A stretch of 64,000 nucleotides of DNA from a virus. This document shows, one piece after another, positions 47,326-64,000 of the stretch. The notes under the pieces are model-generated. The model was not told where the DNA came from and searched no databases. It saw nothing but the letters and a program-made list of their open reading frames with translations. How positions within the stretch are numbered: position 1 is the stretch's first letter; every line of letters begins with the position of its first letter. The stretch lies in UHGV virus genome UHGV-0038492; one strand, 5' to 3'. The translations under genes and the position numbers were made by a program.

Positions 47326-48174
47326 ATGTCTCTTACGTCAAAACAGAAACTGCTAAAACTCATCAACACTGAAAACAATATTATTCCACCGTTGACTTTC
47401 AGTGATGTTGAAATCGGGGAACCTACCGGTACTGGGGTTGATACCCAGGTGGTTCTGACCTCTAAACTTAAAGGCGATGAGTCTACTACTTTAACAGTGA
47501 CTTACCACCGTCGTAACTTACCTGACTACCTAACCGGTGAGTTGGTATTCGGTAACGACAGTGTGGTAACCGCATCAGATTTGCTTAATGCGATTAACGC
47601 AAAATACAACCTAAATATTTTACCCTCGGATATCGTTGACGCAAAAGTTGAAGGCGAAACCCATCAGCTTACCGCTAACGAGAAATCTTACGAGTGGTGC
47701 GGTGTAGTAACGCTTACGCTGCGCGATCCTATTGACCTGACTGAACTGTTACCGGTTACTCAATTAGAGAATCTGGTAGAGTATCCGTCCACGAAGAAAG
47801 GTAACGCGGCGGTTTATTCTCACCCGATTGATTTCACCGCAGAAAAAGATTACCTTGACCCGATTACTATCAACGACGCTGTAGACTTGGTAGAATTAGC
47901 TACTAAACTGGATAGCGTCGTTGACGAGAAATGGGTAAGCGTACCTAAGAACGCGGCTAACAACCTGTACGGAGCGAAGATTATTTACGATGGTCCAACC
48001 GCAGGTTACGAAGGCGCAAATACGAAGTTCACTCGTGTGTTGGTGCTAACACTCAGCCCGCTGTGTTCTAACCTGACCGGTAACCTGTTAATTCACTTTA
48101 ACGGGACCGATCGTCCGAAGTCGAAGATTGAATTAGCACAGACTAATCCGGTCTTACCGGGATTCTTAGATTAA
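47326..48174 (+). CDS. hypothetical protein, fibre-associated small-protein family (extended)
   Basis: 282 aa; contains SDLLNAINAKYNLNILPSDI matching the family motif. Confidence 0.65.
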   Translation: MSLTSKQKLLKLINTENNIIPPLTFSDVEIGEPTGTGVDTQVVLTSKLKGDESTTLTVTYHRRNLPDYLTGELVFGNDSVVTASDLLNAINAKYNLNILPSDIVDAKVEGETHQLTANEKSYEWCGVVTLTLRDPIDLTELLPVTQLENLVEYPSTKKGNAAVYSHPIDFTAEKDYLDPITINDAVDLVELATKLDSVVDEKWVSVPKNAANNLYGAKIIYDGPTAGYEGANTKFTRVLVLTLSPLCSNLTGNLLIHFNGTDRPKSKIELAQTNPVLPGFLD

Positions 48175-48187
48175 GAGGATTACAGTA

Positions 48188-48667
48188 ATGGCCAATCAAG
48201 AAACTATCTTCGACCTTATTAAAAAGGCTAACCCGGACGCTGAGTTCGACACCACCAAAGTCACACTGGGTGAACCGGTTGTGACCACCGGTACTTACAA
48301 TACCGAAATTACGGTTGCGTCGATTAAGAATCTCGGTTATGTTAATAAGCAAACGTTCCAGTATAACCGCATTGACGCAGGTTTGTATTTCCTGAACGTA
48401 TTACCGAAATTGTTGGTAGAATCTGCAACGACTACCGCTGACTTACTGCCCGTCATTAACGAGCAGTACAGCCTAACCCTTACAGAAGACGACGTGTGGG
48501 TAGAACAGGTTGGTGAGTTACCGTTAGACGGTAGCGCAATCGAACACGGTATTTTCTTCCGTCCTGAGTGTCTGACCTGGGTTGGTGGTTTTACAGTGCG
48601 TGTTGCGCGTAAACCGGCTGACGCCACACCGCCAAAGACGGCGTCTCGCGCTAAAAAGAAAAAATAA
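48188..48667 (+). CDS. hypothetical protein, same family
   Basis: 159 aa; ADLLPVINEQYSLTLTEDDV motif; Lys-rich C-terminus; terminator downstream. Confidence 0.6.
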   Translation: MANQETIFDLIKKANPDAEFDTTKVTLGEPVVTTGTYNTEITVASIKNLGYVNKQTFQYNRIDAGLYFLNVLPKLLVESATTTADLLPVINEQYSLTLTEDDVWVEQVGELPLDGSAIEHGIFFRPECLTWVGGFTVRVARKPADATPPKTASRAKKKK

Positions 48668-48729: not shown

Positions 48730-49320
48730 ATGGCCGAACGTTGGACTAAAGAAGGTATTATTGAATCCAAAACCGATTTGGAAGGTGGGTACGTCAACGA
48801 CCCTGACGACAAAGGTGGAGAAACCTGTCACGGGGTAACACTGACAACTGCACGCGAATACGGGTACAAAGGAAGAATGAAAGATCTGACCCGTGCGCAA
48901 GCGTTTGACATTTACGATCGTGGTTGGTGGAAGAAACTTAAACTCGATGAGATTTTCGCTATCTCGCCGATACTCGCCGACCGGATGTTTGATTTTGCTA
49001 TTAACTCTGGCCGTGTTAACTGTGTGAAGTCATTACAACGTATTCTCAACGTTTTAAATAACGAAGGGAAACTTTACGCAGATATTGACACCGACGGTGG
49101 TATGGGACCTAAAACACTAGGTGCTCTGAATGCTTATCTAAATTACCGTAAAGGCGAGGGATTAGGCATCTTAATCTTTGCGTTAATCTCACACCAGGTA
49201 ACCTACTACACGGAAATCTCCGAAAAGCGTAAGAAGAATGAAAAATTCGCTTACGGCTGGTACGGACGTGTGTACAGGGAAATGCCGGATTATGTAGTGA
49301 AGGCGGGGTTAGTAAAATGA
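48730..49320 (+). CDS. endolysin-like peptidoglycan hydrolase (GH108-type N-acetylmuramidase)
   Basis: N-terminal EGGYVNDPDDKGGETCHGVT matches the conserved GH108 signature (EGGYxNDPxDxGGxTxxG). Confidence 0.7.
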   Translation: MAERWTKEGIIESKTDLEGGYVNDPDDKGGETCHGVTLTTAREYGYKGRMKDLTRAQAFDIYDRGWWKKLKLDEIFAISPILADRMFDFAINSGRVNCVKSLQRILNVLNNEGKLYADIDTDGGMGPKTLGALNAYLNYRKGEGLGILIFALISHQVTYYTEISEKRKKNEKFAYGWYGRVYREMPDYVVKAGLVK

Positions 49321-49421
49321 ATTGGTTTGCTAAACTCTTAGCGTTATTGTGGAAAGCGTTAACGTCTGGTCGAAAACGTAAAGACGAAAAACGTGGGCAA
49401 GAATTCTTCTGGTTTTTGTAA
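49317..49421 (+). CDS. 34-aa amphipathic peptide (possible lysis accessory)
   Basis: ATGA overlap with endolysin stop; MNWFAKLLALLWKALTSGRKRKDEKRGQEFFWFL; too short for the ORF track. Confidence 0.3.
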   Translation: MNWFAKLLALLWKALTSGRKRKDEKRGQEFFWFL

Positions 49422-49436
49422 GGAAAGGTGTGGGTA

Positions 49437-50102
49437 ATGGAAAAGCTTCAATATAAACGTTTAGATGATAAGTGGTTTGTATTAACGGAGGATTACCATT
49501 ATCCGTTTACGTTACGTGAGATTTATCACGACCACGTACACTTAGACCGTGCGGTTTATTTAACCGGTGTATTACCTGACACGCAACTGTGGTTAACCGC
49601 TCCGAAAGGGTTCGTAACGGACTTAGCGTCGATACCCGAACACTTACAGGGAATTTTCCATCCTGACGGGCCTTGGGCACCGGCTGCGTGTATTCACGAC
49701 TTGTTATACCAGAAATGCAGTACGGAACGTAGCTACCCTATGACGCCCGGTGGAAACGTTTCTCGCATTATCGATAAAGAGTTCGCTGACTTAACGTTTC
49801 TGCGTATTATGCAGTCGTTAGAAATCTCACCGTATATCTGCCAAACGTTTTATAAAGCCGTTGTAGGATTCGGTTGGGATGCTTACGTAGACCCTAACGC
49901 GAAACCGTCTTATACCACTAACGACTACCGTACGTTAGATTACAATCGAAACTATTTGTTCGTTCGCGAGTTTAAGGAGCCTGCTATTCCTGACCACGAA
50001 CGAGTTGATATCACCACAGGTTGTCCCGTTAATGTCAAATACCTGAACATTAAACGGGCTTTTCTGTCTGGGAGGGAAGATGTTTCATCCAAATCCGAGT
50101 AA
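49437..50102 (+). CDS. hypothetical protein (DUF1353-like, tentative)
   Basis: AAGGAAAGG RBS before ATG 49437; segment GFVTDLASIP resembles DUF1353-type phage proteins. Confidence 0.55.
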   Translation: MEKLQYKRLDDKWFVLTEDYHYPFTLREIYHDHVHLDRAVYLTGVLPDTQLWLTAPKGFVTDLASIPEHLQGIFHPDGPWAPAACIHDLLYQKCSTERSYPMTPGGNVSRIIDKEFADLTFLRIMQSLEISPYICQTFYKAVVGFGWDAYVDPNAKPSYTTNDYRTLDYNRNYLFVREFKEPAIPDHERVDITTGCPVNVKYLNIKRAFLSGREDVSSKSE

Positions 50103-50595
50103 CTTTAAAATCAAAGAGTTAGTACCGCAATCGTACATCACCAAATACGGTGATTCTGCAATTCGGTTTATGAACCCGCTGTTAATGATTTCGCTACAGC
50201 AGATTCGTAACCGTTTCGGCAGAATGGTAATTAACTCGTCTGCTGCGCAACAACGTGGTTTAAGAACCTTAGACTTTTTCATCAACCAAGAAAAGCCTAA
50301 GGGTGGTAACTATAAACAACGTGCTTTACAACTCTATTCCGATTCAGGAAGTCAGCACAAGTTCGGTAACGCGTTCGACGCAACATTGTTAGATTCAACG
50401 GTAAAACAAGTCCACGATTACATCGCCGCCAATCCTGATGAGTTTCCGTTTATTCACTTTATTGAATGCGACATCAGTTGGTTACATATCGATGTTCGTA
50501 ACCAACCGAATATCACGTTCTGGTCACCGAATCGGGGTACTGTGAAAGTCGCGAAACAAAGCCCTATCGATTGGAGCGCCTTAGTTAAAATCTAA
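50080..50595 (+). CDS. peptidase M15-like (LAS-type zinc peptidoglycan peptidase)
   Basis: SQHKFGNAFD fits the SxHxxGxAxD zinc-binding motif and a later WLHID provides the second His. Confidence 0.5.
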   Translation: MFHPNPSNFKIKELVPQSYITKYGDSAIRFMNPLLMISLQQIRNRFGRMVINSSAAQQRGLRTLDFFINQEKPKGGNYKQRALQLYSDSGSQHKFGNAFDATLLDSTVKQVHDYIAANPDEFPFIHFIECDISWLHIDVRNQPNITFWSPNRGTVKVAKQSPIDWSALVKI

Positions 50596-50679: not shown

Positions 50680-50718
50680 ATAAACCTACCCTCCTGCTTA
50701 GCAGGAGGGTATTTATTA
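50680..50718. terminator. bidirectional terminator between convergent genes
   Basis: ACCCTCCTGC-TTA-GCAGGAGGGT flanked by A-rich and T-rich tracts. Confidence 0.7.
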
Positions 50719-51195
50719 TTCTACCGGGTGCAGCATAGTGCCGGTATCTGGAATGCTGCCTTCGTGACATCTGAAGAACGTTACACCTTTACCTTCACCT
50801 GTTTTGTAGTTGATGGTAGAATACGCAAACGTTGGGGTTTTCGACAGTAACCCGTTTACACGGTAATAGCGCTCACCGGTAACAACGTTTAAGTTACCGT
50901 CCACTTTACCTAACAGGTCTTTATAAAGTTGCGGAGATTCAATTTTACCTTCGTCCCATGTAGCGACCCAATTCGCTCCTGTATCCATGACTAACACCGA
51001 AAGGGGCATCAGTTTTAGGCTAGACGGTACCGGTTTAAAATCAGCGAATTCTTGAGAAGCACCTGTACAGGTGTAAATGACCATATCGTGTTGGTCAACA
51101 GGTACGGTGGAGAACTGACCTTCTGCGTTCGGCTGAATAGCACAACTTGCCAATGTCATTACAAAAGCAACGACCACGAGAATGCGTTTTAGCAT
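50716..51195 (-). CDS. lipoprotein (signal peptide with lipobox LASC)
   Basis: AAGGATGAG RBS before ATG at 51195; MLKRILVVVAFVMTLASC; lone minus-strand gene between two plus-strand blocks with terminators on both sides. Confidence 0.65.
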   Translation of the reverse strand: MLKRILVVVAFVMTLASCAIQPNAEGQFSTVPVDQHDMVIYTCTGASQEFADFKPVPSSLKLMPLSVLVMDTGANWVATWDEGKIESPQLYKDLLGKVDGNLNVVTGERYYRVNGLLSKTPTFAYSTINYKTGEGKGVTFFRCHEGSIPDTGTMLHPVE

Positions 51196-51334
51196 AATCT
51201 CATCCTTATTAAAATTAAGAAAAATTAATTTTTTCAGGTTAGCGCTTACTGCCAACCGTCATATCTATATTTTAGGAAATGTCTAAAATAACATTCTTAT
51301 GCAATCCACCCCTGCCACTTACGAGGTAAAAACG

Positions 51335-51871
51335 ATGGCTAAAGCCTTCAAACAGCAGCTCATCGAAGCTGTAATTGCTAAAAACTCAGAAACCGCTTCT
51401 AATCTGACGGTTGCTGATGTTGATTTTGGCGCTGTTGCTGAGTTCAGCGGAGACGCTGGCCGCAACACTAAAATTACCCTGACCGCCAAGGCAGAAAGCC
51501 AGAACTTCAAAGGCGAGAAAGAATTCCACTACATTCGTCTGGCTTCTCAAGACCTGATCGGTGCTAAAGCTTACGAACAAGCCGGTAGCCTCGATCTGGA
51601 AAACTCTGCCATTGTAACCAAACTGAACGAAGAAATGGTTACTAAAGGTTATGTCGATGACGAGTTTGCAGAGAGCGAACTGTCCATTGAGAAATCCGAA
51701 GGCGACAGCGGTGCTAAAGTTTACACTGTCAAAGTAAGCGAAGGTCACATCAAATTCCTGGCTGGTACCATTGCCACCTTCACTTATTCCAACCCAGCTC
51801 CTGAGAAGGTAGCACTGAGCGGTCTGGAAGGTGAACTTGATGGCTTCACTGCGCCGGGTGTCGGTGGCTAA
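51335..51871 (+). CDS. hypothetical protein, paralog 1 (C-terminal GELDGFTA motif)
   Basis: GAGGT RBS before ATG 51335; host-like high-expression codon choice; paralogous to ORF 51943. Confidence 0.65.
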   Translation: MAKAFKQQLIEAVIAKNSETASNLTVADVDFGAVAEFSGDAGRNTKITLTAKAESQNFKGEKEFHYIRLASQDLIGAKAYEQAGSLDLENSAIVTKLNEEMVTKGYVDDEFAESELSIEKSEGDSGAKVYTVKVSEGHIKFLAGTIATFTYSNPAPEKVALSGLEGELDGFTAPGVGG

Positions 51872-51883
51872 GTAAGTTAAATC

Positions 51884-51904
51884 GGGGGGGGGGTGACCTC
51901 CCCC
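51884..51904 (+). other. G10...C5 homopolymer hairpin between the GELDGFTA paralogs
   Basis: ATCGGGGGGGGGG TGACCT CCCCCGAT about 40 nt before ATG 51943. Confidence 0.6.
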
Positions 51905-51942
51905 GATATTTCTTTAACTCGTATTATTAAGGACCTAAGATA

Positions 51943-52473
51943 ATGGCCGCTACTAACCAGATGATGTTGGTCGCGCTTTATAATGCTGCTAACACTGAGC
52001 TACCGCATCAGATTACAGATAAAGAAGTGTCCTTTGGTTTGCCTGCTGCGCTGGAAGGCGAAGGTAAGAATACCAAAGTTACCATGACCGCACTACCGGG
52101 TTCTGAGAATTTCAAAGGCGAAATCGAACTGCATTACGATCGTCTGGAGCCAGGTGTTGTAGGACGGATTGAACTAACTGACGATCTGTCTCGCTGGGTT
52201 CAAGAAAATGAACTCCGTGCTTGGTTACAGTATTACATCAACAAAGTAAAACCTGACGACGCTATCGCACCAGGCGACGTTGTGTACAACACCGAAGACC
52301 AGAAAGACGAACATGAAAACGTCACTCTGCGTACCGTGACGTGCACCGTTACTGAAAAGAACCTCCGTTATAAACCAGGTGTAATGGCAACTTTCGTAAT
52401 TACACCGAAGGTTGTCGATAATCGTATTGACCTGGCCACCACCAACGGTGAGTTGGACGGCTTTACTGCTTAA
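51943..52473 (+). CDS. hypothetical protein, paralog 2 (C-terminal GELDGFTA motif)
   Basis: AAGGA RBS; shares TK(I/V)T(L/M)TA...ENFKGE and the C-terminal motif with ORF 51335. Confidence 0.65.
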   Translation: MAATNQMMLVALYNAANTELPHQITDKEVSFGLPAALEGEGKNTKVTMTALPGSENFKGEIELHYDRLEPGVVGRIELTDDLSRWVQENELRAWLQYYINKVKPDDAIAPGDVVYNTEDQKDEHENVTLRTVTCTVTEKNLRYKPGVMATFVITPKVVDNRIDLATTNGELDGFTA

Positions 52474-52510
52474 TCGCTAAGTCAACTACTATAACAAAAA
52501 ATAATAAGTT

Positions 52511-52546
52511 TACCTACCTCCGTAAAGGAGGTAGGTATTTTTTTTT
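52511..52546. terminator. bidirectional terminator between convergent genes
   Basis: TACCTACCTCC-GTAAA-GGAGGTAGGTA flanked by an A-run and T9. Confidence 0.75.
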
Positions 52547-52554
52547 GCCGCTAA

Positions 52555-53226
52555 TTACAGCCCTTGCTCTAATGCAAACGCTTTAATTGAATCGTAATCA
52601 CGGGCTTCGGCCCAAGCTCTGACTTCTTTTTTCTGTTCCGTCATTGCCTGATGCAGTTGCTGGTCGCGTTGCACAATAGCACCCAGCAGTGTTTTGCACT
52701 GCTCTAACGTAAACGGTTCGATACGGGTGTTGTTGGCCGTTAACCAATACGCTGGCGCGGTTTCTGACTGAATATAACGACTCAGTGCTACCTGTGACTT
52801 CTCATCTGCCTGGAAAGTGAAATCACCCACTTGAATCTCGGCATACCGCGCATCCTGATAACGGAATTCCAATGCGCTTAGGATTTTCTGAACATCGGTA
52901 AAGATATACCGCACAGTGGAGCGTAAACCCGTACGAATCTCTTCCAGGTCAATTCCCAACGTGTCGTTAACAAAGTCTTTCGCTTTCTGTAACGTAAATC
53001 GTGCTTCGATTTCAGACATGTCGTAGTTACGCATTTGTTCCAATGCTTCACGATCGGACATCCCATCAATCAATTTATAGTGCAGTAACGCACAAAAACC
53101 CGTACGACCATGATCTTCGCTACCGATTTTTTCCATATAGTTACCATGGCGGTCAATCGGTAAATCGTGCTCAAAATAACGACGACGGATTTCTTCTTTC
53201 GTTAAGCCTTCACCAGTAGCAGACAT
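52555..53226 (-). CDS. hypothetical protein, last gene of the fibre/radical-SAM operon
   Basis: 223-aa ORF overlapping the upstream gene by 25 nt; terminator downstream. Confidence 0.6.
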   Translation of the reverse strand: MSATGEGLTKEEIRRRYFEHDLPIDRHGNYMEKIGSEDHGRTGFCALLHYKLIDGMSDREALEQMRNYDMSEIEARFTLQKAKDFVNDTLGIDLEEIRTGLRSTVRYIFTDVQKILSALEFRYQDARYAEIQVGDFTFQADEKSQVALSRYIQSETAPAYWLTANNTRIEPFTLEQCKTLLGAIVQRDQQLHQAMTEQKKEVRAWAEARDYDSIKAFALEQGL

Positions 53227-53774
53227 TCATCGTCTCCTTTAATCAATCCTAATTCGATTAACAGTTCAAAATCGATATGACGGAATCTTGTATCAAAATC
53301 CGATTCCCAATCGATGCGGATACCCTGGCACTCTTCTGATGTTAGCTCGGGAAAAATTACGGTATTAAATTTCTCACGCTCATCGTAAAACCCATCAATC
53401 GGTGAGTTCGGGTTACGCGTTGCGAAAATAGTAATACCAGGGAAAGATAATGCTAACACAGTGATAGATTCTGCGCTGGGCTCACTTAAAGAGCGGCGTA
53501 GAAACGCAATTTTGTGGCGTGGGAAGTCCAATACGCGTTCTTCAAACCCTGGATTACGTTTTTCGATTTCCGCTACCGACAGGTCAGTAAGTTCGGTGCA
53601 ATACATTGGGATGATTACAGTCACGCCGTGGCGAATCAGTAAACGTTTTACGTCATCGGTAAAATCTTCGCCGTTAATCATCACGTAACAACCGAACAGC
53701 TTACTGTTTTCCAGAAACTTATCCAGAAGTCGAATTCTACGCTTCGTAATATTGTTGATCAGAATTGGTTTCAT
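53202..53774 (-). CDS. hypothetical protein co-operonic with radical-SAM enzymes
   Basis: 190-aa ORF overlapping both neighbours. Confidence 0.6.
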   Translation of the reverse strand: MKPILINNITKRRIRLLDKFLENSKLFGCYVMINGEDFTDDVKRLLIRHGVTVIIPMYCTELTDLSVAEIEKRNPGFEERVLDFPRHKIAFLRRSLSEPSAESITVLALSFPGITIFATRNPNSPIDGFYDEREKFNTVIFPELTSEECQGIRIDWESDFDTRFRHIDFELLIELGLIKGDDECLLLVKA

Positions 53775-55059
53775 CTTTGGCTTCTCTTAATAATTTTTCC
53801 TTTTGGGCGCGTTCACGAACACAGCGTGGGCAATAACACATACTCGTGTCGTGGAACGCTTTTGCTGACGTCGTACCCATCTTCTGTTTCCAGTATTCCG
53901 CCACCATCAGTTTCGCTGTCGTCCACCCGCACTGACGTCGCTCAGCGTGATACGCTTTACGGTCTTCCAGTGTCCCTTCACCGTTTTCGTAAGAAGCCGC
54001 AGCGCAGCTACCACAAGCGTGTTTCATCGGACAACCTAAGCACGTCTCTGGATAGTTGGTATATTGTGTTTGAATCTCTTCTAACAATTTACCGTTGTCC
54101 AGGCTGACGAATTCCCGACCTACCAACTCAAATACCGCAGAACGTGATGTTACGGTTGACATAAAGCGATTGCAACCGAAGATCTTACGGTCAAAACCTA
54201 AACACGTCATGTGTGTTAATGTCCCACAGAACGGACGTAAACGTTCTGGGTTCAACCGCACCGTGTCATTATAAAGTAATTGATCACGCCAGTTCGGTTC
54301 CCAAATCGTATCGAAATCCAACCCTTCTGGGATGATGTGCGATAAGATATTACGTGGGTTGGTGTGTAATCCTTTCTCGACCCAATAATCAATCACATCC
54401 ATCATCTGCAATGCAATTGAAGTAGCCATCCCACGTGGCATAATGTCTTCGAAGGTTACGTTGCCGGAGATAGTTCCGCCACCAGTAATATCAATTAATG
54501 ACTTCATTCCGGCAGCATAGTACGGTAACGTTTCTAACGTAAAGGTCGCCTTTACGCCAAGCTCTGCAATGCCAACCTCTTTTAAGTAGTTATAGCCTCG
54601 TACTGCGGCTTCGTAAGAACCCTGGCGCGTCGTTGTAAAGATACGATAACGGTCATGGGACTCAGGTAAGCCGTCAATTGAAACCCCAACCGAAAGTTTG
54701 TCTTTCCAACGCTCTACGATCTCACGGTTCAACGGGCGATCTAACAACGTCCCGTTTGTGGAAATACTAAACATAAACGGCCGATTATGTTCTTTACACA
54801 ACTGCTCGGCGGTTTCAAATGCAGCCAGCAGCAACTTAGGCTGCATGAACGGTTCACCACCGATAATGTCAATAATAACTTCAACATTCGGTTCGTTTTT
54901 ATCGCGTTCAAAACAGGCGTGCAAGAAATCAACAATATCTGCCGCTTTGTTGTTACGCGGGTACTTACGTTCGTAACAATATTCGCAGTCCAGGTTACAC
55001 GAAAGGTTCGTTACAATCTGATACGTTAGCTGCTTAGGGAATTCATTTACCTGACTCAT
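53737..55059 (-). CDS. radical SAM enzyme with C-terminal SPASM-like Cys cluster (anSME/peptide-maturase-like)
   Basis: N-terminal CNLDCEYC (CxxxCxxC), GGEPFM SAM-binding motif, and C-terminal cysteines (CLGCPMKHACGSC...CYCPRC) typical of auxiliary Fe-S clusters. Confidence 0.75.
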   Translation of the reverse strand: MSQVNEFPKQLTYQIVTNLSCNLDCEYCYERKYPRNNKAADIVDFLHACFERDKNEPNVEVIIDIIGGEPFMQPKLLLAAFETAEQLCKEHNRPFMFSISTNGTLLDRPLNREIVERWKDKLSVGVSIDGLPESHDRYRIFTTTRQGSYEAAVRGYNYLKEVGIAELGVKATFTLETLPYYAAGMKSLIDITGGGTISGNVTFEDIMPRGMATSIALQMMDVIDYWVEKGLHTNPRNILSHIIPEGLDFDTIWEPNWRDQLLYNDTVRLNPERLRPFCGTLTHMTCLGFDRKIFGCNRFMSTVTSRSAVFELVGREFVSLDNGKLLEEIQTQYTNYPETCLGCPMKHACGSCAAASYENGEGTLEDRKAYHAERRQCGWTTAKLMVAEYWKQKMGTTSAKAFHDTSMCYCPRCVRERAQKEKLLREAKDETNSDQQYYEA

Positions 55060-55966
55060 TTGCCGCCCCTCTATTACGACCTGCCATCACTACGCGACGA
55101 ATATATTCGTACGCCTCTACACCGATAGAGAAGGCCAGTTGGTTACACCCGGATTCCAGTACGTTAGGTGCGTTCTGGAGCTGGTGCTCACCACCGTCTG
55201 CATTAATCCAGAGACTTTCGCTGCAAACGTTACACCCTTCTTCAAACACTTTACTTACCGTAAAACCACATTCACGACTGTTTACTACATTCAGTCGTTC
55301 AATGTTGTCCTGAACCCGATAGTAGCCGTAAATAAAGTTCATGACGTGGTCAGGTGATAAAGGCTTTGGCATTTTCGCATCTAAGAGTAACGTCATTGCT
55401 CGGAAACCGTAATGGTAAATCGCGCTGTGCAGCTGAATAATATCTTCATGCCAACGTTTATCCCCCAAACGGTCCCGTGTCAAGACACCCCAAGTCTGGA
55501 CATTATCCAGCTCGTAGATCGTTTCCAGTGCTTCGTAACAGCCTTCGTCAATAAAGCGCATAAATGGACGCTCAGACGACTTAAACCCATCGATGCTAAC
55601 GTAGACATTGTCAAACTGTTTTAGCAACGGGAGATGCGATTTACGCATCTTTAAGCCATTGGTATACAACTGGTGTTTGAGTTCTGGACGAATCACTTTT
55701 AATTCGTCAACAAACGCCTCAATTTTACGGGTTGCCAATAGTGGCTCACCACCCGTCCACTGAATTTCGGTAATGGTTGGATTAGCTTCCAGCGCTTCCA
55801 AAATTCGCTCACGTTGAAACTCTCGCGGAGAATCTTCACGATTCATGTAATAGGCTCCACCGCAGAAGCTACAATCCAGGTTACACTTGGACGTAGCGAC
55901 TACGGACAATACGGTGGGTTTATCGTATAAACGATTCGATAACCTTGGTTCTGCATTGGTTGTCAT
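55043..55966 (-). CDS. radical SAM enzyme, paralog of the 440-aa enzyme
   Basis: CNLDCSFC and GGEPLL motifs; C-terminal Cys pairs (CGFTVSKVFEEGCNVC...GC); overlaps downstream gene by 17 nt. Confidence 0.75.
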   Translation of the reverse strand: MTTNAEPRLSNRLYDKPTVLSVVATSKCNLDCSFCGGAYYMNREDSPREFQRERILEALEANPTITEIQWTGGEPLLATRKIEAFVDELKVIRPELKHQLYTNGLKMRKSHLPLLKQFDNVYVSIDGFKSSERPFMRFIDEGCYEALETIYELDNVQTWGVLTRDRLGDKRWHEDIIQLHSAIYHYGFRAMTLLLDAKMPKPLSPDHVMNFIYGYYRVQDNIERLNVVNSRECGFTVSKVFEEGCNVCSESLWINADGGEHQLQNAPNVLESGCNQLAFSIGVEAYEYIRRVVMAGRNRGAANESGK

Positions 55967-55987
55967 TGCAGGTGACTCCGGTCGTTT

Positions 55988-56887
55988 TTAAATATAATCA
56001 ATGGCGAACAAAGGATCGTCGTCTACGTTAGCACCAGGGGTTAACAAGAATGGAGAGTTATACGCTTCCAAAATACGGTTAAGGTCTTTATAACGGACAT
56101 TTAAACGTTCTAAATCCGCTAACGTTACGTTACGGTCCAACACCGCCGACACTGCTGCTTTCTCTTCGTCAGTTAACGTGACTTTCGTCATTAAGAAACT
56201 AACGAGTTTTGCCAGATCCGCTTCTGTTGACGGATGCTCGCCGATACGCGTTTGAATCAAATGCTGCATCCATGGTTTACGGATGCGTTTTGTGATCTCA
56301 TGTTCATCCGTTAGGGCAACCCACACGGAACGTTCACGATCCCACACGAACTTATAGCTATACGCCATTAAATCCGCTAAACAATTAATCCCTAAGGCTT
56401 CGTACCCTTCAATTTCAATATACGATTCCGTATCGAAATAGTTCTTCGTTTCTGGTGTTACCAGGGTAAAGAAATACGGGAACGAGCCCAAGTAATCTGG
56501 TGACCACCAACGACGGGCAACCGGTTTTGCACCCATTTCTTCAAACGGGGTAAAGAACAATTCCATATCCACGGAGTTATTCAAAATCCCATCACTAAAG
56601 AAATATTTACCTGCAACCAATTTACCACGCAACTCAGAGTCACCGGTAAATACCACTACACTTTCTGCCGTCAGATCACGAATCTTAAACGTATTTTCTA
56701 CACGATAGTTTTTACGATCGGTAAAGAAACGTCCGCGCACTTTAGGCCATTCGCCTGGCAATTGCGTCAGCAGACGAACTTCATCTGCTAAGTGTGCACG
56801 TACGGAATCAGGGGAAGAAATGTGAAGTGGATGATTGAAAATCGTTTTGTACGCTAAATGTAAATCATTCTTCATTGATTGCTCCAA
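55988..56887 (-). CDS. hypothetical protein between Cys-rich proteins and radical-SAM enzymes
   Basis: 299-aa ORF; no motif recognised. Confidence 0.6.
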   Translation of the reverse strand: MEQSMKNDLHLAYKTIFNHPLHISSPDSVRAHLADEVRLLTQLPGEWPKVRGRFFTDRKNYRVENTFKIRDLTAESVVVFTGDSELRGKLVAGKYFFSDGILNNSVDMELFFTPFEEMGAKPVARRWWSPDYLGSFPYFFTLVTPETKNYFDTESYIEIEGYEALGINCLADLMAYSYKFVWDRERSVWVALTDEHEITKRIRKPWMQHLIQTRIGEHPSTEADLAKLVSFLMTKVTLTDEEKAAVSAVLDRNVTLADLERLNVRYKDLNRILEAYNSPFLLTPGANVDDDPLFAIDYI

Positions 56888-56910
56888 CTATTTTACGGTC
56901 AAACGGACGT

Positions 56911-57120
56911 TCAGGGTATAGAACCCACCCCGCCATTGTCTGCCGGTAACTTGAAACTCAGCAGTAAACCCATTCGATTTACTCGGTTGCTGGTTAATCG
57001 CCATACTACCGCCGGAATTCTTAAAACCTCTAAAGAGATAGAAGCAGAAGTCGCATTACCGATTGAGTCTATCTTAAAACTAGCCGCATCTGTAAAATTG
57101 ACAGTAATACCATCACCCAT
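56911..57120 (-). CDS. possible small ORF filling the gap in the operon
   Basis: 69-aa ORF spaced about 22 nt from both neighbours in a tightly packed operon; weak RBS. Confidence 0.3.
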   Translation of the reverse strand: MGDGITVNFTDAASFKIDSIGNATSASISLEVLRIPAVVWRLTSNRVNRMGLLLSFKLPADNGGVGSIP

Positions 57121-57142
57121 CGCAACTCGGGGAAAGGCTTAC

Positions 57143-57349
57143 TTACCGCCCCCCTGCTCCCTTACTACAGCTACCGCTGCACGACCAGCTACATCCACCG
57201 TTACAGTTGTAGTGGCTTAAAGGTAAACCGGCAAGGTTATTGGTTGAAGACACGGTACCCTGGTTTGCAATATAGTTGTTTGCGTTAGCGGTCGTAATAT
57301 ACCCTTCCGCTGTTACTAAACGATCACGAAGGTTCTTAAGGCTAATCAC
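57143..57349 (-). CDS. Cys-rich protein, short copy 3
   Basis: GTG start 6 nt after GGGAGG (which is also the last two codons of the upstream gene); leader ISLKNLRDRL... then NCNGGCSWSCSGSCSKGAGGR. Confidence 0.55.
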   Translation of the reverse strand: MISLKNLRDRLVTAEGYITTANANNYIANQGTVSSTNNLAGLPLSHYNCNGGCSWSCSGSCSKGAGGR

Positions 57350-57351
57350 AA

Positions 57352-57750
57352 TTACCTCCCAGAACACCCACCGGAACAAGAACCTGAACAGCCTGAAGAA
57401 CAGTTCCCTGTACACGCGTTAGAACAGCTCCCCGTGCAACTTCCTGAACACCCACCGGAGCAGGTATTCGAACATCCGCTACAGCCCGCGCTACAACCTG
57501 ATACGCAGTTTGCAGAACACGAGGAACCACAACCACCGGATGCGTTTCCTGTGCAGCCACCAGAACAACTCGAACACGTCCAGCTACAACTACCTCCGCA
57601 GTCGTAGTGATTGCGGGCCTGTCCTCCGAATAAGTCTGCGTTGTTTGTCGCTTTCCCGCGAATATAGTTTTGTACTGCACCCGTATTCTTCAATGCAGTG
57701 CTGTCAATGTTATTTAACCGCGCTTGTAGCGCAGGTAATCCAATTGCCAT
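57352..57750 (-). CDS. Cys/Gly/Ser-rich protein, copy 2
   Basis: 132 aa; ~50-aa N-terminal leader-like region ending DCGG, then about 80 residues with 20 Cys in a C-x2-3 periodicity. Confidence 0.7.
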   Translation of the reverse strand: MAIGLPALQARLNNIDSTALKNTGAVQNYIRGKATNNADLFGGQARNHYDCGGSCSWTCSSCSGGCTGNASGGCGSSCSANCVSGCSAGCSGCSNTCSGGCSGSCTGSCSNACTGNCSSGCSGSCSGGCSGR

Positions 57751-57760
57751 TTTTCACCTC

Positions 57761-58156
57761 TTAGGTTGGGCCAGAACAGCCGCCAGAGCAGGCACCAGAA
57801 CAACCCGTAGAACAACGGCCTGAGCAAGCACCCCCACAGGTTCCGCTACAACCTGAACACCCACCTGAACACGTTGAGCTACATCCAGTACATTGGTTAC
57901 CGCACGCAGAGGAGCAGCTGCCTACACACACAGACGTACAAGTACCCGAACAGCTCGTACAACCATGCGTACAGCCGTTTGAGCACGTCCAGCTACAACT
58001 ACCTCCGCAGTCTAACCGGTTTGGCGTCCAACCCGAAAATGTGTCGGCTGCATTATGTGCTTTCGACGCAACTTGCGGATCAACACGTGGGCCAGTTGCC
58101 ATTTGGTTCTCTACGTTGGTGATTCGGTCACGTACGTTTTTAACACTGATCGCCAT
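57761..58156 (-). CDS. Cys/Gly/Ser-rich protein, copy 1
   Basis: AAGGA RBS before ATG 58156; leader MAISVKNVRDRITNV...LDCGG then 21 Cys in about 80 residues. Confidence 0.7.
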   Translation of the reverse strand: MAISVKNVRDRITNVENQMATGPRVDPQVASKAHNAADTFSGWTPNRLDCGGSCSWTCSNGCTHGCTSCSGTCTSVCVGSCSSACGNQCTGCSSTCSGGCSGCSGTCGGACSGRCSTGCSGACSGGCSGPT

Positions 58157-58223
58157 CACGTATCCTTAAAATAAAAAAGAATGGAGGACTACGTCCATAA
58201 ACATAGTTCCTCCTGTAATTAAA

Positions 58224-59429
58224 TTATTTCGTACCCGCTTCCGCCTGTACGTCATCACGAGACGTCAGGTTAGCGTTAACGTGTACTGCGGCCTGAACCA
58301 CGCCACCGTATTTCTTGTGGAGATAACCGGTGTGTGGGTTATCTGCCGCAATGTGGTTTTGTAGGTTTTGGTTCGCTTGACTGATTGCGTTCGTGTTATT
58401 GTTAACCTGCTGTTTAAGCGCATCCAGGCTTTGTTGTACCTGATTGATTTTCTGATCGGTTTCTTGACCCTGTTGCTCTAACGCGTCAACACGCTGAATA
58501 ACCTGATTCAGTTTTGTGTTTAAATCGTTGATGTTCTTTTGCAGCTGTAACACTAACGAGTTCAGGTTCGCTAACGCTAAGGCCATTTTCTGGTAGTTTT
58601 GAGCAACCACGTTAAGTTGGTCGTTCCACGCTTCCAGAGAGTTGACAACAGCGTCAATACGTTTACCTAAAGCTTCGTCCGCTTTCTTCAGTGCATTGAT
58701 TTCCGTAATCGTTGCATCGATAGCAGACTGAACGTCACGAATAAGCGCACGGATTTCAGTTTCTCTTAACCCGTTAACCTGGTGAATATCAAGATGGTGA
58801 ACGTTACCCGTTGCGTTGATGTGTGCATTTAAAGCATCTAAGAAGTCATTTTTCAGACTTTCTAAAATCGCTTTAATGTTCTCTAACTGTACCGCGTCAC
58901 CAGAACTGATCGCATCTTTAATCCCCGCCAATACGGTGATGATATATTCAAAACCGTAGATGTCACCCACGTCTTTATACGTCGGTGCAGACGGGAATGT
59001 ATCCGGTACGTTACGTAAGTCTTTAAACGCAATCGTACGGTTATCGAGGTTTAACTCAGCAATCGCCTGTTCGATAGCCACGATGTTCGCAGACTGTGGA
59101 CCACCAACGACCTGCGCAGATACCGTAATATCTGTTGGAATCGCTGTGTTAGTGACCACCACCGCCATAACAATCTCGCGGTTTTTAGTCAGCTTTTCAT
59201 AAGTCGGGTGTGCAAAAATCAACTCATAATCGGTACCACGTTCGTAGGTTGCTTCCGGTCGGTTAGCAACGCGTAAACGGAACGTGTCCGCAAAGAACGG
59301 ACCATCAGGAAAAGCAAAAGCACGGTTTACTTTACCTGTACCTAACGTAATCTGACGCTCCACAGCGTTAGACGTTAGCGAGCCCGTTAAATCTAAAGGA
59401 TATTGATAAACAATGGAGGCCATGGCCAC
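58224..59429 (-). CDS. tail fibre protein with long coiled-coil
   Basis: 401 aa; central heptad-rich Asn/Gln/Leu region typical of fibre shafts. Confidence 0.7.
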   Translation of the reverse strand: MAMASIVYQYPLDLTGSLTSNAVERQITLGTGKVNRAFAFPDGPFFADTFRLRVANRPEATYERGTDYELIFAHPTYEKLTKNREIVMAVVVTNTAIPTDITVSAQVVGGPQSANIVAIEQAIAELNLDNRTIAFKDLRNVPDTFPSAPTYKDVGDIYGFEYIITVLAGIKDAISSGDAVQLENIKAILESLKNDFLDALNAHINATGNVHHLDIHQVNGLRETEIRALIRDVQSAIDATITEINALKKADEALGKRIDAVVNSLEAWNDQLNVVAQNYQKMALALANLNSLVLQLQKNINDLNTKLNQVIQRVDALEQQGQETDQKINQVQQSLDALKQQVNNNTNAISQANQNLQNHIAADNPHTGYLHKKYGGVVQAAVHVNANLTSRDDVQAEAGTK

Positions 59430-59463
59430 TCTCCTTTATTCGAGACGTCCTTGTCCCGAGTCA

Positions 59464-62400
59464 TTAAGATGTAAACATAAGATTGAACTGGAGTTTGTCG
59501 ATATCGCGAGTTTCTGCTGGATTCACACCATCGTACGCGGTCGCTACGTAAACCGTTAGCGTGCCGTTAGCGTAAGACGATTTCACCGGTGGGTTAGTTC
59601 CAGTCTGACCATCTCGCACAATGAGTGTAGGTTCACTTGGGAGATTATCAAACTGACCCTTGACCGCTTTATACACCAAACCAGATTGCGCAGACAGTTC
59701 AGTGTCCGTAAAGACAAAGAACGGTGTGTCGATATCAGCCTGTTTAATCGTGGTACCGGTCTCGACGTCAATCAACTGTACCGCCCCAAACTTCGTACGA
59801 TAACTTTCATACTCGTTCTTCGGAATAACGAACGTGACGTGAACGCGAACCTCCTCGGCAGGTTTAAACCCAGCGTGCTCTTTTTCCAGGTACTGGTTGG
59901 CGGTTAACGTGACGTCCTGCTCTTTCATCGTACCACCGGCCTGGTTTAATGCATAGCGAGCTTCAACAATACCGGTTGGCGCAGCAAGTCGCAGTTTCAG
60001 AGCACGATTTGCCGTTCCTGGATTACCTGGCACCTGAACGCGCAAACTCAATGCTAAGTAAACATTCGTTCCGGTAGTCGGTTTCGTATACGCACCAATC
60101 CATTTCATGTTCGCAGACGCTGCCTGCGTGTTCTCAGAAGCAGTGGCTGTCGCAATGTTAGCAGCTACCGCTTTCTGCCAGAATTGGTCAGCGCAGTTCT
60201 CATACGCTACCCTGGCCACGCTCTTATAACCCGAATACGTTTCCTGAATTGGTAACTTAGGACGCGTCGTAATACCAGACAATGAACCCCATTTTTGACC
60301 GTCAACATACCCTTCGCCCTTCGACGCAGACGCCGTAGGCGCTTTAACGGGTTTGTTAACCAGTGTTAATAGAGGACCCGTCTTTCTGTCAAACGCTGCT
60401 GCAACATCATGTTGGTCGATAATTGCTGCGTGGTCTTCCAGTTCTTTCACACGACCCAAACGTTTTACTTTGTCGATGTTGATACCAGTAATACGGCTGG
60501 AATCGGTGGTTACTGACCCGACGAACAGTCTTGTTGAAGTGTCAGCTAACTGCTCCAAACCGATACGGTATTGCGCAGTAGAACCTGACACCTCAGCGTG
60601 CACGTAGAACGTCTGGTTAGCGTGGTTAGACGGGAATTCGCTGCTTAAATCCACAGACCACGTTGGGAGTGTGTAACTGCTGCTACCGAAGTCTAACTTG
60701 ACTTCTTCTGTCAAATACAGAATCCAGCCTTCTGCTGTCTCCACACCGGCAATAATAACAGCCTGACCTCCGGTTGAGAACCTCGTGTCGTTAACGAACT
60801 CTGCGGCTGTATACGCGTTACCTGAACAGAAAACACGGTCAGCTTTAGAGTAAATCAACGCCATCTTGTCCCAATTACCCGCACCCATATAGCACCCAGA
60901 TTCTGGGTTATGTGCAGGGGCCATCTGTCGTAACTGTGACTTACCAGGAACGCGAGACCAACCTGAACCTGGGTCGTAGGTATACTTCGCGGCGTAACCT
61001 AGTGCATTTAAGTCCCCGATATTTCGGATAGTTAACGTATAAGGTAGCCAAATACCGAAGTTTACACCGTCGGCAGAAGCAAAAATTGGCTGACCGACAC
61101 GTCGTGTTTTATTACCCGCTTCTTCCCTCAGAGACTGATAACTTAAACCATAATCGAGGTCTAAGAACCAGTCCACCAACTTAAAGGTGGCTGAGTTGAA
61201 ACGTAAGTAGCCGTTCTCTTTAGATGGACTCACCATGAAGTAATAGATGTCAAGAATTCGACGTCCGTTACTTGAGGTTTTCATGCACGAAACTTGCAAC
61301 AAGTCAAATTCGCACACGGTGTTGATACCCAACATCCAAAGAGCAAACAGTGCATTACCGGTTTGATGTGCAGCACTGATGCGCTCATTCGCGTAACCAT
61401 TTGCTTGACCAGATGGCGCACCGTCAACGATCATCCGAATCATTTTCTGACGATCGGCTTCTTCTAGCGTTAAGCGTTCGGAAGACAATGCGAAATTACC
61501 GTAGATGTTACGATACGGGAACGTTTCTGCTTTGGTCAAATACCAACCGTTTAGCTGCCCGTGACGCTCCTCAGGAGTCATGCACGCAGCCATACAGCTA
61601 AGCTGCTCGTAGAGCGTTGGATCGACTTCACGACGGTTGTTGTTCGGACCGTATCCGCTATAACCCGGAACATCGTAAGGTTTGTTCGGATCAACTTCTA
61701 CTTCGATGGTGTAACGGTTACGTGGGTTAGACAACCACACTTTATTCGAACCGCCTATTCCGACAGGATGGGAAAGACCGATGGTGTAAATAGAACCGCG
61801 ACCTTTATCCCAGGTAAACGTTCCTTCGCCCGAGGTGTTGTTTGGGTTATCGTAACGCAGATAATCGAAAAGCTCTTTGCCTTGTGTACCCTTAATAGAA
61901 ACATTAGGCATTTGGTCCGCATCGTTAATCTGCCAGCAGGAAAGCATCATTCCTGTACCGTTAGGTTTTGCATACGTCGCGAAACAACGGTTGTTTGCCT
62001 GACCACCACCCCACTTACGACTGGTTTCTACAGTTGAACCATCCGCGAACGAGAGTGCAGTAGCATCAGCCTTGATGGGGAAGCGTTCGCGGCCTTCTAA
62101 CGTAACCTTGCCCGTCAACGTATCGATTGTAAAACTTGTTGCCCATTGACGAAAGTTAATTTGTGAGCTGTCGGCCGCTGCAAACCACACAGTAGGCATA
62201 TGGTTCACACGAATCACGCTTTCGCGTACCGCACACGCGTGGTTACATTCTGGCCCGTGAACAAAGTTGTGGCCAATTGTCCATTTAGCCCGTGCTTCCG
62301 GCGTCAAATACGTAAAGAATTGACCCGTCTGCGACTCTTCGGTTTTCTGGCCAATACGTAGGCAGAGGTTATCTCCGAATTGTCCCATTTCACCGGTTAG

Positions 62401-64000
62401 TGTTACACGTTCAAATTCTAACGTAGTGTTAGTAGACAAATCGTCTTTACGTAAGCGCCATGCTGCAACAGCGTAAGCAGAGTTATTTACCGTGGAGCGG
62501 AGAAGATAAACATAGTCCTCAACCAACACAACGTCATCGGCTTCTGGCCACGGATTCCAGGTTTGTTCTGTAGTACCGCTGGGGTTACCGTTACGGTACA
62601 TAGGCATCGTGACACGACATACCACCGTGTGTTTAGTGTGGTCCATCGAACCATTAAACAGCACCAAATAACGATTATTGTCAGAACCCAGGCAAATAAT
62701 CGCTTCCTGACCACCGATCAATATCGCTTTTAGGGTCACTCCAGGATATTTACTCATCCCGGCAGGGTGATATTTCACTGAGGTCTGCTGCGGATTTACA
62801 AACGCGTTTGAGGTGTTAATGTCCGCGTAGCCGTAATAAATGGCTTCTGTACCCGGCACGCCATTAGAACCGTTACGTAGCGAATAAACCTTACCCTGCT
62901 GATACCCAACAACCCCTTTCTGGTAAGACTGGTTTTTGGTATAGCCCGCGTAGTTACCTAACGCTGGGATAGGTAAGAAGTTCTTATTACCGAACTTCGC
63001 ACCGCCTACCGTCCATGCCGGTAAGATGGTATTCAGTTTATCAGAGACTTTCTTAATCTCTTTTGCGAACAACCACCCTTGACGTGACGTGACAGCTTTA
63101 TCATTAGTGGTGTCAATTGCATCCCACAGCTGTAAGACACCGTCAACCGTTGCACTACCAATTGGGACGTTATCCAAGTCAGCAGTGGTGTGGGTGTGCG
63201 TTTTCAAACTCTTGTTTTTCAACACGTTCGTTAACGCTTTTGTCACAGGCTTAGCACTCGGTATGGTGTTATCCATCTTATCGATACCGAAATCGGTTTT
63301 CGTTAAGGTTAACACCATCTTGTCGCCCGTCTTAACAAACCCTTTACCGTTAACGGTATAGTCATCGTCAACGTACAGGTCCAAACGGTCTTTTAGTTCG
63401 GTTACGGCTTTCTGGGAGATGGCAGTACCTAACGCCGCAGACGTAGAGATGTTCGTAATCGAGAACAACCCATAAACTGATTCGGACGCTGTGGGAATAT
63501 TCGCGTTTAACGTGACCGGGTTAGTCTGTTTTGCAGTACCGTACGGTTTTACGGTGTCTGACGCTTTGAAATACGCGTTTGCTTCAAGCAACGTTACTGA
63601 CGTCAGATACATGTTCACCATTTCTGGCGTGACCAGGTACACGGAGTTATAAACCGGTGCTAATACATCCTGTTCTGACCCCGAGTGAACCCAAAGCGTA
63701 TTCAGACCCGCACTAAACTCCACCGCTAAACCTGATTCGTTATTGTCCTGGTCTGCTTTAATCACTAACGGTTGCGGTGAGGTAATTAACCACTTATCAC
63801 CACGAATACTGATGATGTGACCACCTGACGTTTTAAACGTTAATTCATTACCGTTCGTGGTACCCCATCGACCGTAAACAGTACCGAGGGCTTCACCCAT
63901 TAACTGATCAACGTCGGATTGCTCGATACCCGCTGAACCCATCAGCGTAGCCAATTCGTCAATCGTCAACCCAAATGCTTTTGTGGCGTCAACAGCGCGT
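59464..64000 (-). CDS. very large tail fibre/receptor-binding protein, 5' end outside window
   Basis: More than 1500 codons open to the window edge (track start at 63969 is a TTG and the frame stays open); Thr/Ser/Gly/Asn-rich beta-type composition. Confidence 0.8.
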   Translation of the reverse strand, partial: RAVDATKAFGLTIDELATLMGSAGIEQSDVDQLMGEALGTVYGRWGTTNGNELTFKTSGGHIISIRGDKWLITSPQPLVIKADQDNNESGLAVEFSAGLNTLWVHSGSEQDVLAPVYNSVYLVTPEMVNMYLTSVTLLEANAYFKASDTVKPYGTAKQTNPVTLNANIPTASESVYGLFSITNISTSAALGTAISQKAVTELKDRLDLYVDDDYTVNGKGFVKTGDKMVLTLTKTDFGIDKMDNTIPSAKPVTKALTNVLKNKSLKTHTHTTADLDNVPIGSATVDGVLQLWDAIDTTNDKAVTSRQGWLFAKEIKKVSDKLNTILPAWTVGGAKFGNKNFLPIPALGNYAGYTKNQSYQKGVVGYQQGKVYSLRNGSNGVPGTEAIYYGYADINTSNAFVNPQQTSVKYHPAGMSKYPGVTLKAILIGGQEAIICLGSDNNRYLVLFNGSMDHTKHTVVCRVTMPMYRNGNPSGTTEQTWNPWPEADDVVLVEDYVYLLRSTVNNSAYAVAAWRLRKDDLSTNTTLEFERVTLTGEMGQFGDNLCLRIGQKTEESQTGQFFTYLTPEARAKWTIGHNFVHGPECNHACAVRESVIRVNHMPTVWFAAADSSQINFRQWATSFTIDTLTGKVTLEGRERFPIKADATALSFADGSTVETSRKWGGGQANNRCFATYAKPNGTGMMLSCWQINDADQMPNVSIKGTQGKELFDYLRYDNPNNTSGEGTFTWDKGRGSIYTIGLSHPVGIGGSNKVWLSNPRNRYTIEVEVDPNKPYDVPGYSGYGPNNNRREVDPTLYEQLSCMAACMTPEERHGQLNGWYLTKAETFPYRNIYGNFALSSERLTLEEADRQKMIRMIVDGAPSGQANGYANERISAAHQTGNALFALWMLGINTVCEFDLLQVSCMKTSSNGRRILDIYYFMVSPSKENGYLRFNSATFKLVDWFLDLDYGLSYQSLREEAGNKTRRVGQPIFASADGVNFGIWLPYTLTIRNIGDLNALGYAAKYTYDPGSGWSRVPGKSQLRQMAPAHNPESGCYMGAGNWDKMALIYSKADRVFCSGNAYTAAEFVNDTRFSTGGQAVIIAGVETAEGWILYLTEEVKLDFGSSSYTLPTWSVDLSSEFPSNHANQTFYVHAEVSGSTAQYRIGLEQLADTSTRLFVGSVTTDSSRITGINIDKVKRLGRVKELEDHAAIIDQHDVAAAFDRKTGPLLTLVNKPVKAPTASASKGEGYVDGQKWGSLSGITTRPKLPIQETYSGYKSVARVAYENCADQFWQKAVAANIATATASENTQAASANMKWIGAYTKPTTGTNVYLALSLRVQVPGNPGTANRALKLRLAAPTGIVEARYALNQAGGTMKEQDVTLTANQYLEKEHAGFKPAEEVRVHVTFVIPKNEYESYRTKFGAVQLIDVETGTTIKQADIDTPFFVFTDTELSAQSGLVYKAVKGQFDNLPSEPTLIVRDGQTGTNPPVKSSYANGTLTVYVATAYDGVNPAETRDIDKLQFNLMFTS

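Follow-up and report, generated by a model that had tools for sequence, protein, structure and literature searches.

What do the last two genes of a phage radical S-adenosylmethionine (SAM) operon contribute, and do they belong with the enzymes in front of them? The question is raised by a 64,000-nucleotide (nt) stretch of the virus genome UHGV-0038492 (hereafter the window), in which two minus-strand open reading frames (ORFs) of 190 and 223 amino acids (aa), here called p190 and p223, follow the genes for two radical-SAM enzymes of 307 and 440 aa (rSAM307 and rSAM440). As described below, p190 is the obligate genomic partner of the SPASM-type radical-SAM gene rSAM440, and p223 carries a DUF4376 domain and can be regarded, by analogy with studied members of that family, as a putative assembly chaperone. 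We give an even chance to the joint reading in which p190 acts as a cluster-less maturase partner and p223 as an assembly chaperone. An earlier note on this DNA had assigned no function to either gene, which still describes p190 but not p223. By position it had proposed further modification, export or assembly factors. Assembly suits p223 and a modification role is supported for p190, but export is not supported, since hydrophobic segments and transporter domains are absent from both proteins.

By megablast of positions 52400-59500 (~72% identity, with matches to SPN3US-like phages of Salmonella, Escherichia, Proteus and Erwinia), the window was assigned to a SPN3US-like, Seoulvirus-related jumbo phage, and its gene order agrees with SPN3US genes 161-168. 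Along the minus strand, a gp168-like fibre gene and a gene for a 401-aa coiled-coil virion protein are followed by three genes for cysteine-rich (Cys-rich) proteins, p299, rSAM307, rSAM440, p190 and p223 (Table 1). SPN3US gp168 is a tail protein at the baseplate's periphery and a relative of phiKZ gp131 (PMC5105663). The operon is thus set in the tail-fibre region, and p190 and p223 are the final two genes of an eight-gene cassette within it; neither this setting nor the exchangeable nature of the cassette was part of the earlier note.

p190 and p223 are genuine, conserved and translationally coupled genes. The overlaps of about 38 and 25 nt described earlier were borne out with exact coordinates: p190 shares exactly 38 nt with rSAM440 (53737-53774) and exactly 25 nt with p223 (53202-53226), and p223 has a good ribosome-binding site, GGAG, 7 nt ahead of its ATG. 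The same overlaps, or overlaps of 1-22 nt, are present in phages of four genera (SPN3US, pEa_SNUABM_29, CR5, Wellington and Asesino) and in metagenome contigs. Homologues of both proteins keep their length down to 20-27% identity, the ratio of non-synonymous to synonymous divergence (dN/dS) of p190 is ~0.2 against a relative with dS saturated, and the AlphaFold2 (AF2) models are fairly confident, with predicted local distance difference test (pLDDT) scores of 83 for p190 and 79 for p223. Co-transcription with the radical-SAM genes, which had been taken as given, is plausible, given that the overlaps recur across relatives, that no terminator separates the genes, and that they are co-inherited in one cassette. 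The operon had also been proposed to end at a bidirectional terminator. The hairpin at this place (52511-52537) is strong (-22.7 kcal/mol, z = -4.4, none of 200 shuffles as stable) and was flagged on both strands, and the whole element has the form of an intrinsic terminator, a GC-rich hairpin followed by a U-tract. However, the plus-strand tail is T9 (52538-52546), whereas the minus-strand tail is a weaker, only moderate, interrupted U-rich run (AACUUAUUAUUUUUUG), so that the hairpin would be a better terminator for the convergent plus-strand gene than for the operon. A scan for sigma-70 promoters, a model that is not relevant to phiKZ-like phages, gave no more sites than expected by chance, and no significant RNA structure was found in the intergenic region 56880-57150.

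The association of p190 with the radical-SAM enzyme is seen most clearly in its relatives. Among deposited phage genomes, p190 is present in 62 records and full-length p223 in 62, and rSAM440 orthologues (at least 59% identity) occur in the same phage group; the distant radical-SAM genes of Campylobacter phages and faecal contigs are accompanied by neither p190 nor p223. Since the 62 records represent one related group, independent arrangements were sought among the most distant p190 relatives. In each of the 35 loci whose upstream sequence is long enough, p190 immediately follows the rSAM440 orthologue, at alignment gaps of -34 to +78 nt. For example, the module in loci L012 and L013 consists of three genes with repeated C-x-x-x units (Cxxx-repeat genes), a p299 homologue, a small radical-SAM gene, the SPASM radical-SAM gene and p190, beyond which there are a 70-aa ORF and a homing-endonuclease-like gene; no p223, DUF4376, fibre or 401-aa homologue was found within 10 kb, and profile alignment with hhalign of the 70-aa ORF of L012, 3' of p190, against p223 gave nothing. 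In locus L009 the order is permuted: two fibre genes come ahead of the SPASM radical-SAM gene and its p190, and behind these are the Cys-rich genes, a p299-like gene (its similarity to p299 is marginal, tblastn E 0.001) and the small radical-SAM gene. The fibres of L009 bear Peptidase_S74 intramolecular chaperone domains, p223 is absent, and hhalign of p223 against these fibres gave nothing. Overall, the lack of p223 coincides exactly with fibres that bring a chaperone in cis or with the lack of a nearby fibre gene. Therefore, p190 travels paired with the SPASM enzyme and p223 is separable. The co-occurrence analysis that had been proposed as a check thus places p190 only directly behind a SPASM radical-SAM gene, which supports a role in the modification step.

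Comparison with close relatives showed that the eight genes, at 52.5-58.25 kb, form an exchangeable cassette. In these relatives overall, the cassette block is 50-85% identical to the window while the flanks are 92-99% identical. In the relative L018 (NZ_CP173450.1), the flanks at 46.75-52.5 and 58.25-64 kb are 92-99% identical, and the fibre and the 401-aa protein are 96% and 97% identical in amino-acid sequence, but the block between them is only 50-83% identical with synonymous sites saturated (p190 52%, p223 66%, rSAM440 86%). L019 has the same right boundary and a left boundary at ~52.6 kb. L020 is the converse case, with a cassette 97-99% identical at the protein level next to a fibre of 90% and a 401-aa protein of 93% identity. 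The edges are sharp: the terminator on the left, and on the right the space between the 401-aa gene and the first Cys-rich gene (~58.2 kb). No donor of the cassette was found, and SPN3US is ~72% identical to the L018 allele. From these identity patterns, the eight genes behave as one unit that reassorts independently of the fibre genes, and p190 and p223 therefore belong firmly to the radical-SAM module.

p190 itself belongs to an uncharacterised family. An exhaustive HMMER search of 1.84 billion representative proteins gave 29 clusters, all of 100-230 aa, and the sole library match of p190 is phrog_7988 (annotated as function unknown). No match was found in Pfam (0 of 28 members), NCBIfam or PADLOC, none to a PqqD profile (PF05402-type), and none below E 0.05 when the Protein Data Bank (PDB) sequences were searched with the family profile. 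The protein is acidic and of soluble type, without a hydrophobic segment (maximum Kyte-Doolittle 19-residue mean 1.43). Its only cysteines are at positions 29, 59, 148 and 184; they form no CxxxCxxC motif, and none is conserved across the family. The alignment of 28 members contains no invariant column, and the best-conserved feature is an S-x4-E-K-R-N-P-G-F-E motif after strand 3, of which S66 is kept in at least 90% of members. No protein of the cassette evolves faster than p190, which is 47% identical to its SPN3US counterpart where rSAM440 is 82% identical. In the structure predictions, which call for caution because two of five AF2 models failed, the best three (pLDDT 83, predicted template modelling score 0.81) have repeated beta-alpha units that appear to form a partial alpha/beta barrel nearest to radical-SAM cores. 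When the p190 family was aligned by hhalign with the two neighbouring radical-SAM families, separately and combined, no significant match was obtained (probability at most 3%); two independent runs, both non-significant and no more than a hint, aligned p190 strands 2-3 with radical-SAM strands 3-4. p190 may be a degenerate radical-SAM paralogue that has lost the first strand and the cluster loop. In this connection, L019 has an extra small radical-SAM copy (263 aa, L019 5410-6201) among its Cys-rich genes, so duplication of radical-SAM genes does occur within the cassette.

For p223, the family assignment is straightforward. Residues 124-212 match Pfam DUF4376 (PF14301) with E 1.3e-11 and 45.3 bits against a gathering cutoff of 25, and the domain was matched in all 14 aligned family members, close and intermediate. 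p223 is phrog_8169, and an identical protein is named 'DUF4376 domain-containing protein' at NCBI. A family-specific helical N-terminal part of ~100 aa precedes the C-terminal DUF4376 domain (residues ~104-220), and the AF2 model, whose pLDDT rises to 89-95 in the DUF4376 portion, has a helical N-terminal domain followed by two long helices with a small beta-hairpin or sheet. Using Foldseek against BFVD, p223 matched many DUF4376 proteins from unrelated phages, and rSAM440 has no tblastn match in any of the unrelated phages listed there. It had been argued earlier that homologues widespread in phages without radical-SAM genes, with established unrelated functions, would count against a link to these enzymes; such homologues exist for the DUF4376 domain of p223 and not for p190. 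The family profile of p223 found nothing below E 0.05 among PDB sequences, and p223 has no PqqD-like (PF05402-type) match and no hydrophobic segment (maximum 19-residue mean 0.48). Among characterised proteins with this domain, gp27 of the Alteromonas phage V22 is required to obtain a working receptor-binding fibre and is missing from the mature complex (PMC7289586), A5 gp9 and V22 gp27 have been modelled as trimeric caps resembling intramolecular chaperone domains (PMC10579305), and a Campylobacter prophage fibre requires a downstream DUF4376 gene (PMC7882524). None of the DUF4376 systems in these three papers is reported there with radical-SAM genes.

Taking these properties together, we propose that p190 is a soluble, probably non-catalytic subunit, a radical-SAM-like partial barrel without an Fe-S site, which would be made in step with rSAM440 by translational coupling and bind the enzyme. 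As the maturase has no leader-recognition domain of its own, p190 may serve in holding or presenting the Cys-rich substrates or in stabilising the enzyme. p223 would be a transient cap, with a helical core and a beta-hairpin, that aids oligomerisation of a fibrous product of the locus and is not itself a modification enzyme. With regard to its client, co-inheritance within the cassette points to the matured Cys-rich proteins, whereas the pattern of presence and absence points to the gp168-like fibre. Our first idea was that p223 helps the 1501-aa fibre, both being fast-diverging between genera. This was weakened by the close relatives, because divergence of p223 does not track that of the fibre: the fibre is 96% identical where p223 is 62-67% identical.

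Several other explanations have to be weighed against this proposal. We hold it improbable that p190 instead has an enzymatic activity in the pathway, such as that of a leader peptidase or some other hydrolase with the modified Cys-rich proteins as its substrates. RiPP-like modules (those resembling loci for ribosomally synthesised and post-translationally modified peptides) usually come with a protease and none is recognisable in the cassette; in addition, the conserved motif beginning at S66, together with K88, lies after strand 3, where an alpha/beta barrel would have its active site, and S66 is nearly constant in the family. However, the 28 sequences have no invariant column, such fast evolution relative to the rest of the cassette is unusual for an enzyme, and no peptidase or hydrolase was matched in Pfam, NCBIfam or PDB sequences. 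Just as improbable to us is that p223 remains part of the virion, where it would serve as a distal cap or adhesin in the manner of T2-type gp38 and determine host range, which would account for cassette swapping. V22 gp27 and the mature fibre do not elute together (PMC7289586), and in no relative is the p223 orthologue annotated as a virion structural protein, whereas its neighbours are. The adhesin idea draws on the non-synonymous divergence of p223 and p190, which is the highest in this independently reassorting cassette, on the host-recognition genes all round (among them those of the gp168-like fibre and the DUF7941 proteins) and on the proposal that DUF4376 chaperones may double as fibre 'caps' (PMC10579305). 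Nevertheless, synonymous divergence in the cassette is saturated as well, which argues for exchange of whole alleles and not for positive selection on p223.

It is slightly less probable still that both proteins are ordinary assembly factors of the large fibre and the 401-aa protein, linked to the radical-SAM genes by ancestry and gene order only and taking no part in their chemistry. The deposited phages with the pair are one related group with conserved synteny, and divergence of the pair between genera is about that of the fibre. This explanation does not account well for p190 adjoining rSAM440 in L012 and L013, where no fibre or 401-aa homologue lies within 10 kb, and in the permuted L009. 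Nor does it fit the close relatives, whose p190 and p223 diverge with the cassette although identity remains at 96-97% for the fibre and the 401-aa gene. Export of the modified peptide or immunity to it, as in bacteriocin operons, would fit the end position in a RiPP-like operon, but we regard this role as very improbable: the hydrophobicity maxima of both proteins are low, no ABC, peptidase C39 or other transporter domain was found in Pfam or NCBIfam and nothing matched in PADLOC, and the locus lies among virion genes of a lytic jumbo phage.

Table 1. Coordinates of the operon and its neighbours in the 64,000-nt window
Feature	Coordinates	Strand	Remarks
p190	53202..53774	-	190 aa; SPN3US gp162 equivalent
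p223	52555..53226	-	223 aa; SPN3US gp161 equivalent
Hairpin terminator	52511..52546	both	11-bp stem 52511-52537; common to the convergent units; left edge of the variable cassette
rSAM440	53737..55059	-	SPASM-type radical-SAM maturase, 440 aa; PF04055; upstream partner of p190
rSAM307	55043..55966	-	second, smaller radical-SAM enzyme, 307 aa; PF04055, Fer4_12; kept in all cassettes
p299	55988..56887	-	299 aa; phrog_8030; core-module member
Short Cys-rich protein 3	57143..57349	-	68 aa; GTG start at 57349, ribosome-binding site GGGAGG
Cys-rich Cxxx-repeat protein 2	57352..57750	-	132 aa; phrog_6085; TIGR04114 (Cxxx-repeat target), E 4e-4
Cys-rich Cxxx-repeat protein 1	57761..58159	-	132 aa; phrog_6085; presumed radical-SAM substrate; its start is the right cassette boundary
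gp168-like fibre gene	59464..64000	-	frame open to base 63999, past the window end
DUF7941 paralogues (four)	47326..48667 and 51299..52473	+	282, 159, 190 and 176 aa
Lysis-related cluster, plus strand	48730..50595	+	
Lysis-related cluster, minus strand	50716..51255	-	

The other products of the cassette indicate the kind of chemistry in which p190 may take part. In rSAM440 the CNLDCEYC motif spans residues 21-28, and since the cluster motif starts this early, the enzyme has no N-terminal leader-recognition domain. Its best NCBIfam matches are TIGR04115 (maturase of Cxxx-repeat targets; E 1e-33, 117 bits against a cutoff of 350) and PapB. The Cys-rich genes of every cassette are three paralogues. 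Two are long, encoding ~120-130 aa with 15-20 C-x-x-x repeats; the short one, of 60-69 aa, stops just past the first CSW motif, and all three proteins share a conserved N-terminal region of ~45 aa. The triplet occupies 57143-58159 (minus strand) in the window, 10553-11533 in L009, 6055-7016 in L012 and 5885-6932 in L014. For the short gene of the window, an alternative start at 57415, giving a 90-aa ORF, was rejected as too early, the equivalents in L012, L009 and L019 being 60-69 aa. The constant 2+1 pattern may reflect a three-chain product. Extending this, the cassette could build a new kind of virion appendage in which two long and one short Cxxx-repeat protein, cross-linked by the two radical-SAM enzymes and held by p190 as a cluster-less subunit of radical-SAM origin, are capped by p223 into a three-chain filament or tip. 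Jumbo phages would exchange the unit without the large fibre, for host range or counter-defence. We consider this fuller picture rather unlikely.

Tail and lysis genes lie around the operon. The listed 1501-aa ORF is the C-terminal portion of a fibre gene of ~1727 aa, its orthologues being 1701-1727 aa long. Two of the four DUF7941 genes converge on the operon terminator, and one extra DUF7941 copy is present in L019; proteins of this family were proposed, in a 2026 preprint on phage Goslar, to form a head-to-tail 'fibre cloud' round the baseplate. The lysis-related cluster beside the fibre region includes a GH108 endolysin with PG_binding_3, a 171-aa endolysin-like protein and a DUF1353 protein; RefSeq and PHROGs label the last of these 'tail assembly chaperone'. 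On the opposite strand the cluster has a 179-aa ORF with a hydrophobic N-terminal stretch followed by a Cys, possibly a lipoprotein.

Some public records of these phages need to be read with care. Partial matches in the Salmonella phages SPFM5-9, 12, 14, 15 and 20 at first suggested a diverged cassette, which was rejected, at least the SPFM20 record being scrambled. When LR535917.1 (SPFM20) was compared with SPN3US by blastn, blocks of ~60 nt were 100% identical; they lay on the opposite strand, with their left-to-right order preserved. This looks like a sequence in which each 60-base line was reverse-complemented separately, and the SPFM5, 6, 7, 8, 9, 12, 14 and 15 records are probably affected too. 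Scrambling of this kind gives rise to false short 'homologues' and to meaningless CDS annotations in public databases. In addition, proteins identical to p190 and p223 are present on 90-138 contigs, up to ~226 kb, of assemblies labelled as Salmonella, E. coli and Shigella isolates, and 222-kb relatives have been deposited as circular 'plasmids' of E. coli (L018) and Enterobacter ludwigii (NZ_CP134650.1). These records suggest frequent carriage of an uncultured jumbo phage along with clinical isolates, or its persistence in them.

If the proposed roles are correct, p190 would be a new accessory component of SPASM radical-SAM peptide maturases, and its omission may be the reason why an attempt to reconstitute Cxxx-repeat chemistry would fail. 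Likewise, a DUF4376 chaperone within a radical-SAM cassette would tie post-translational cross-linking to virion assembly, a link for which no description in phages was found in the literature searched. The sharp cassette boundaries provide a natural experiment, in which alleles are swapped among otherwise 95%-identical phages, and the question is directly testable, as an amber-mutant genetic system exists for SPN3US (PMC5105663). Both proteins are already in public annotation, in every SPN3US-like phage, as 'hypothetical' or 'DUF4376' proteins; in the literature searched, no paper discusses these genes or radical-SAM or RiPP functions in SPN3US-like phages.

Compared with known systems, p223 has several features of the DUF4376 chaperones V22 gp27, A5 gp9 and the H-fibre helper of Campylobacter CJIE1. 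It is of similar size (~195-240 aa), soluble and last in a host-recognition operon, its N-terminal part is variable, and the helical body and small beta-hairpin of its predicted structure are as described for these chaperones (PMC10579305). A gene of the V22 gp27 type would be expected immediately 3' of the fibre gene it serves, whereas p223 follows p190 and is separated from the nearest fibre-like genes (the 401-aa and gp168-like genes, 5-6 kb upstream) by eight genes. Also unlike these chaperones, it lies inside a radical-SAM/Cxxx-peptide cassette and is passed on together with it, and its N-terminal domain is family-specific. p190 appears to resemble radical-SAM cores (for example the PFL-activase domain 3CAN, viperin 5VSL, anSME 4K36 and CteB 5WGG) in its predicted fold only, being just 190 aa long and having no detectable sequence or profile similarity; without a CxxxCxxC motif or conserved cysteines, it cannot bind the catalytic cluster or cleave SAM. 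Like PqqD and other RiPP recognition element (RRE) proteins, p190 is a small protein whose gene adjoins, and is translationally coupled to, that of a SPASM maturase without an N-terminal recognition domain. RRE proteins are, however, winged-helix domains of ~90 aa, whereas p190 is a 190-aa, alpha/beta barrel-like protein in which PqqD was not matched. The bacterial Cxxx-repeat systems (TIGR04114/TIGR04115), with their substrates of C-x-x-x runs, are the best family matches of the Cys-rich protein and of rSAM440, but the present system differs from them in its phage tail-fibre setting, in the low score of rSAM440 (117 against 350 bits) and in having p190, a family not found outside these phage cassettes. 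p223 adds a member to a known domain family, in an uncommon setting, and p190 represents an uncharacterised family with a specific, testable radical-SAM association.
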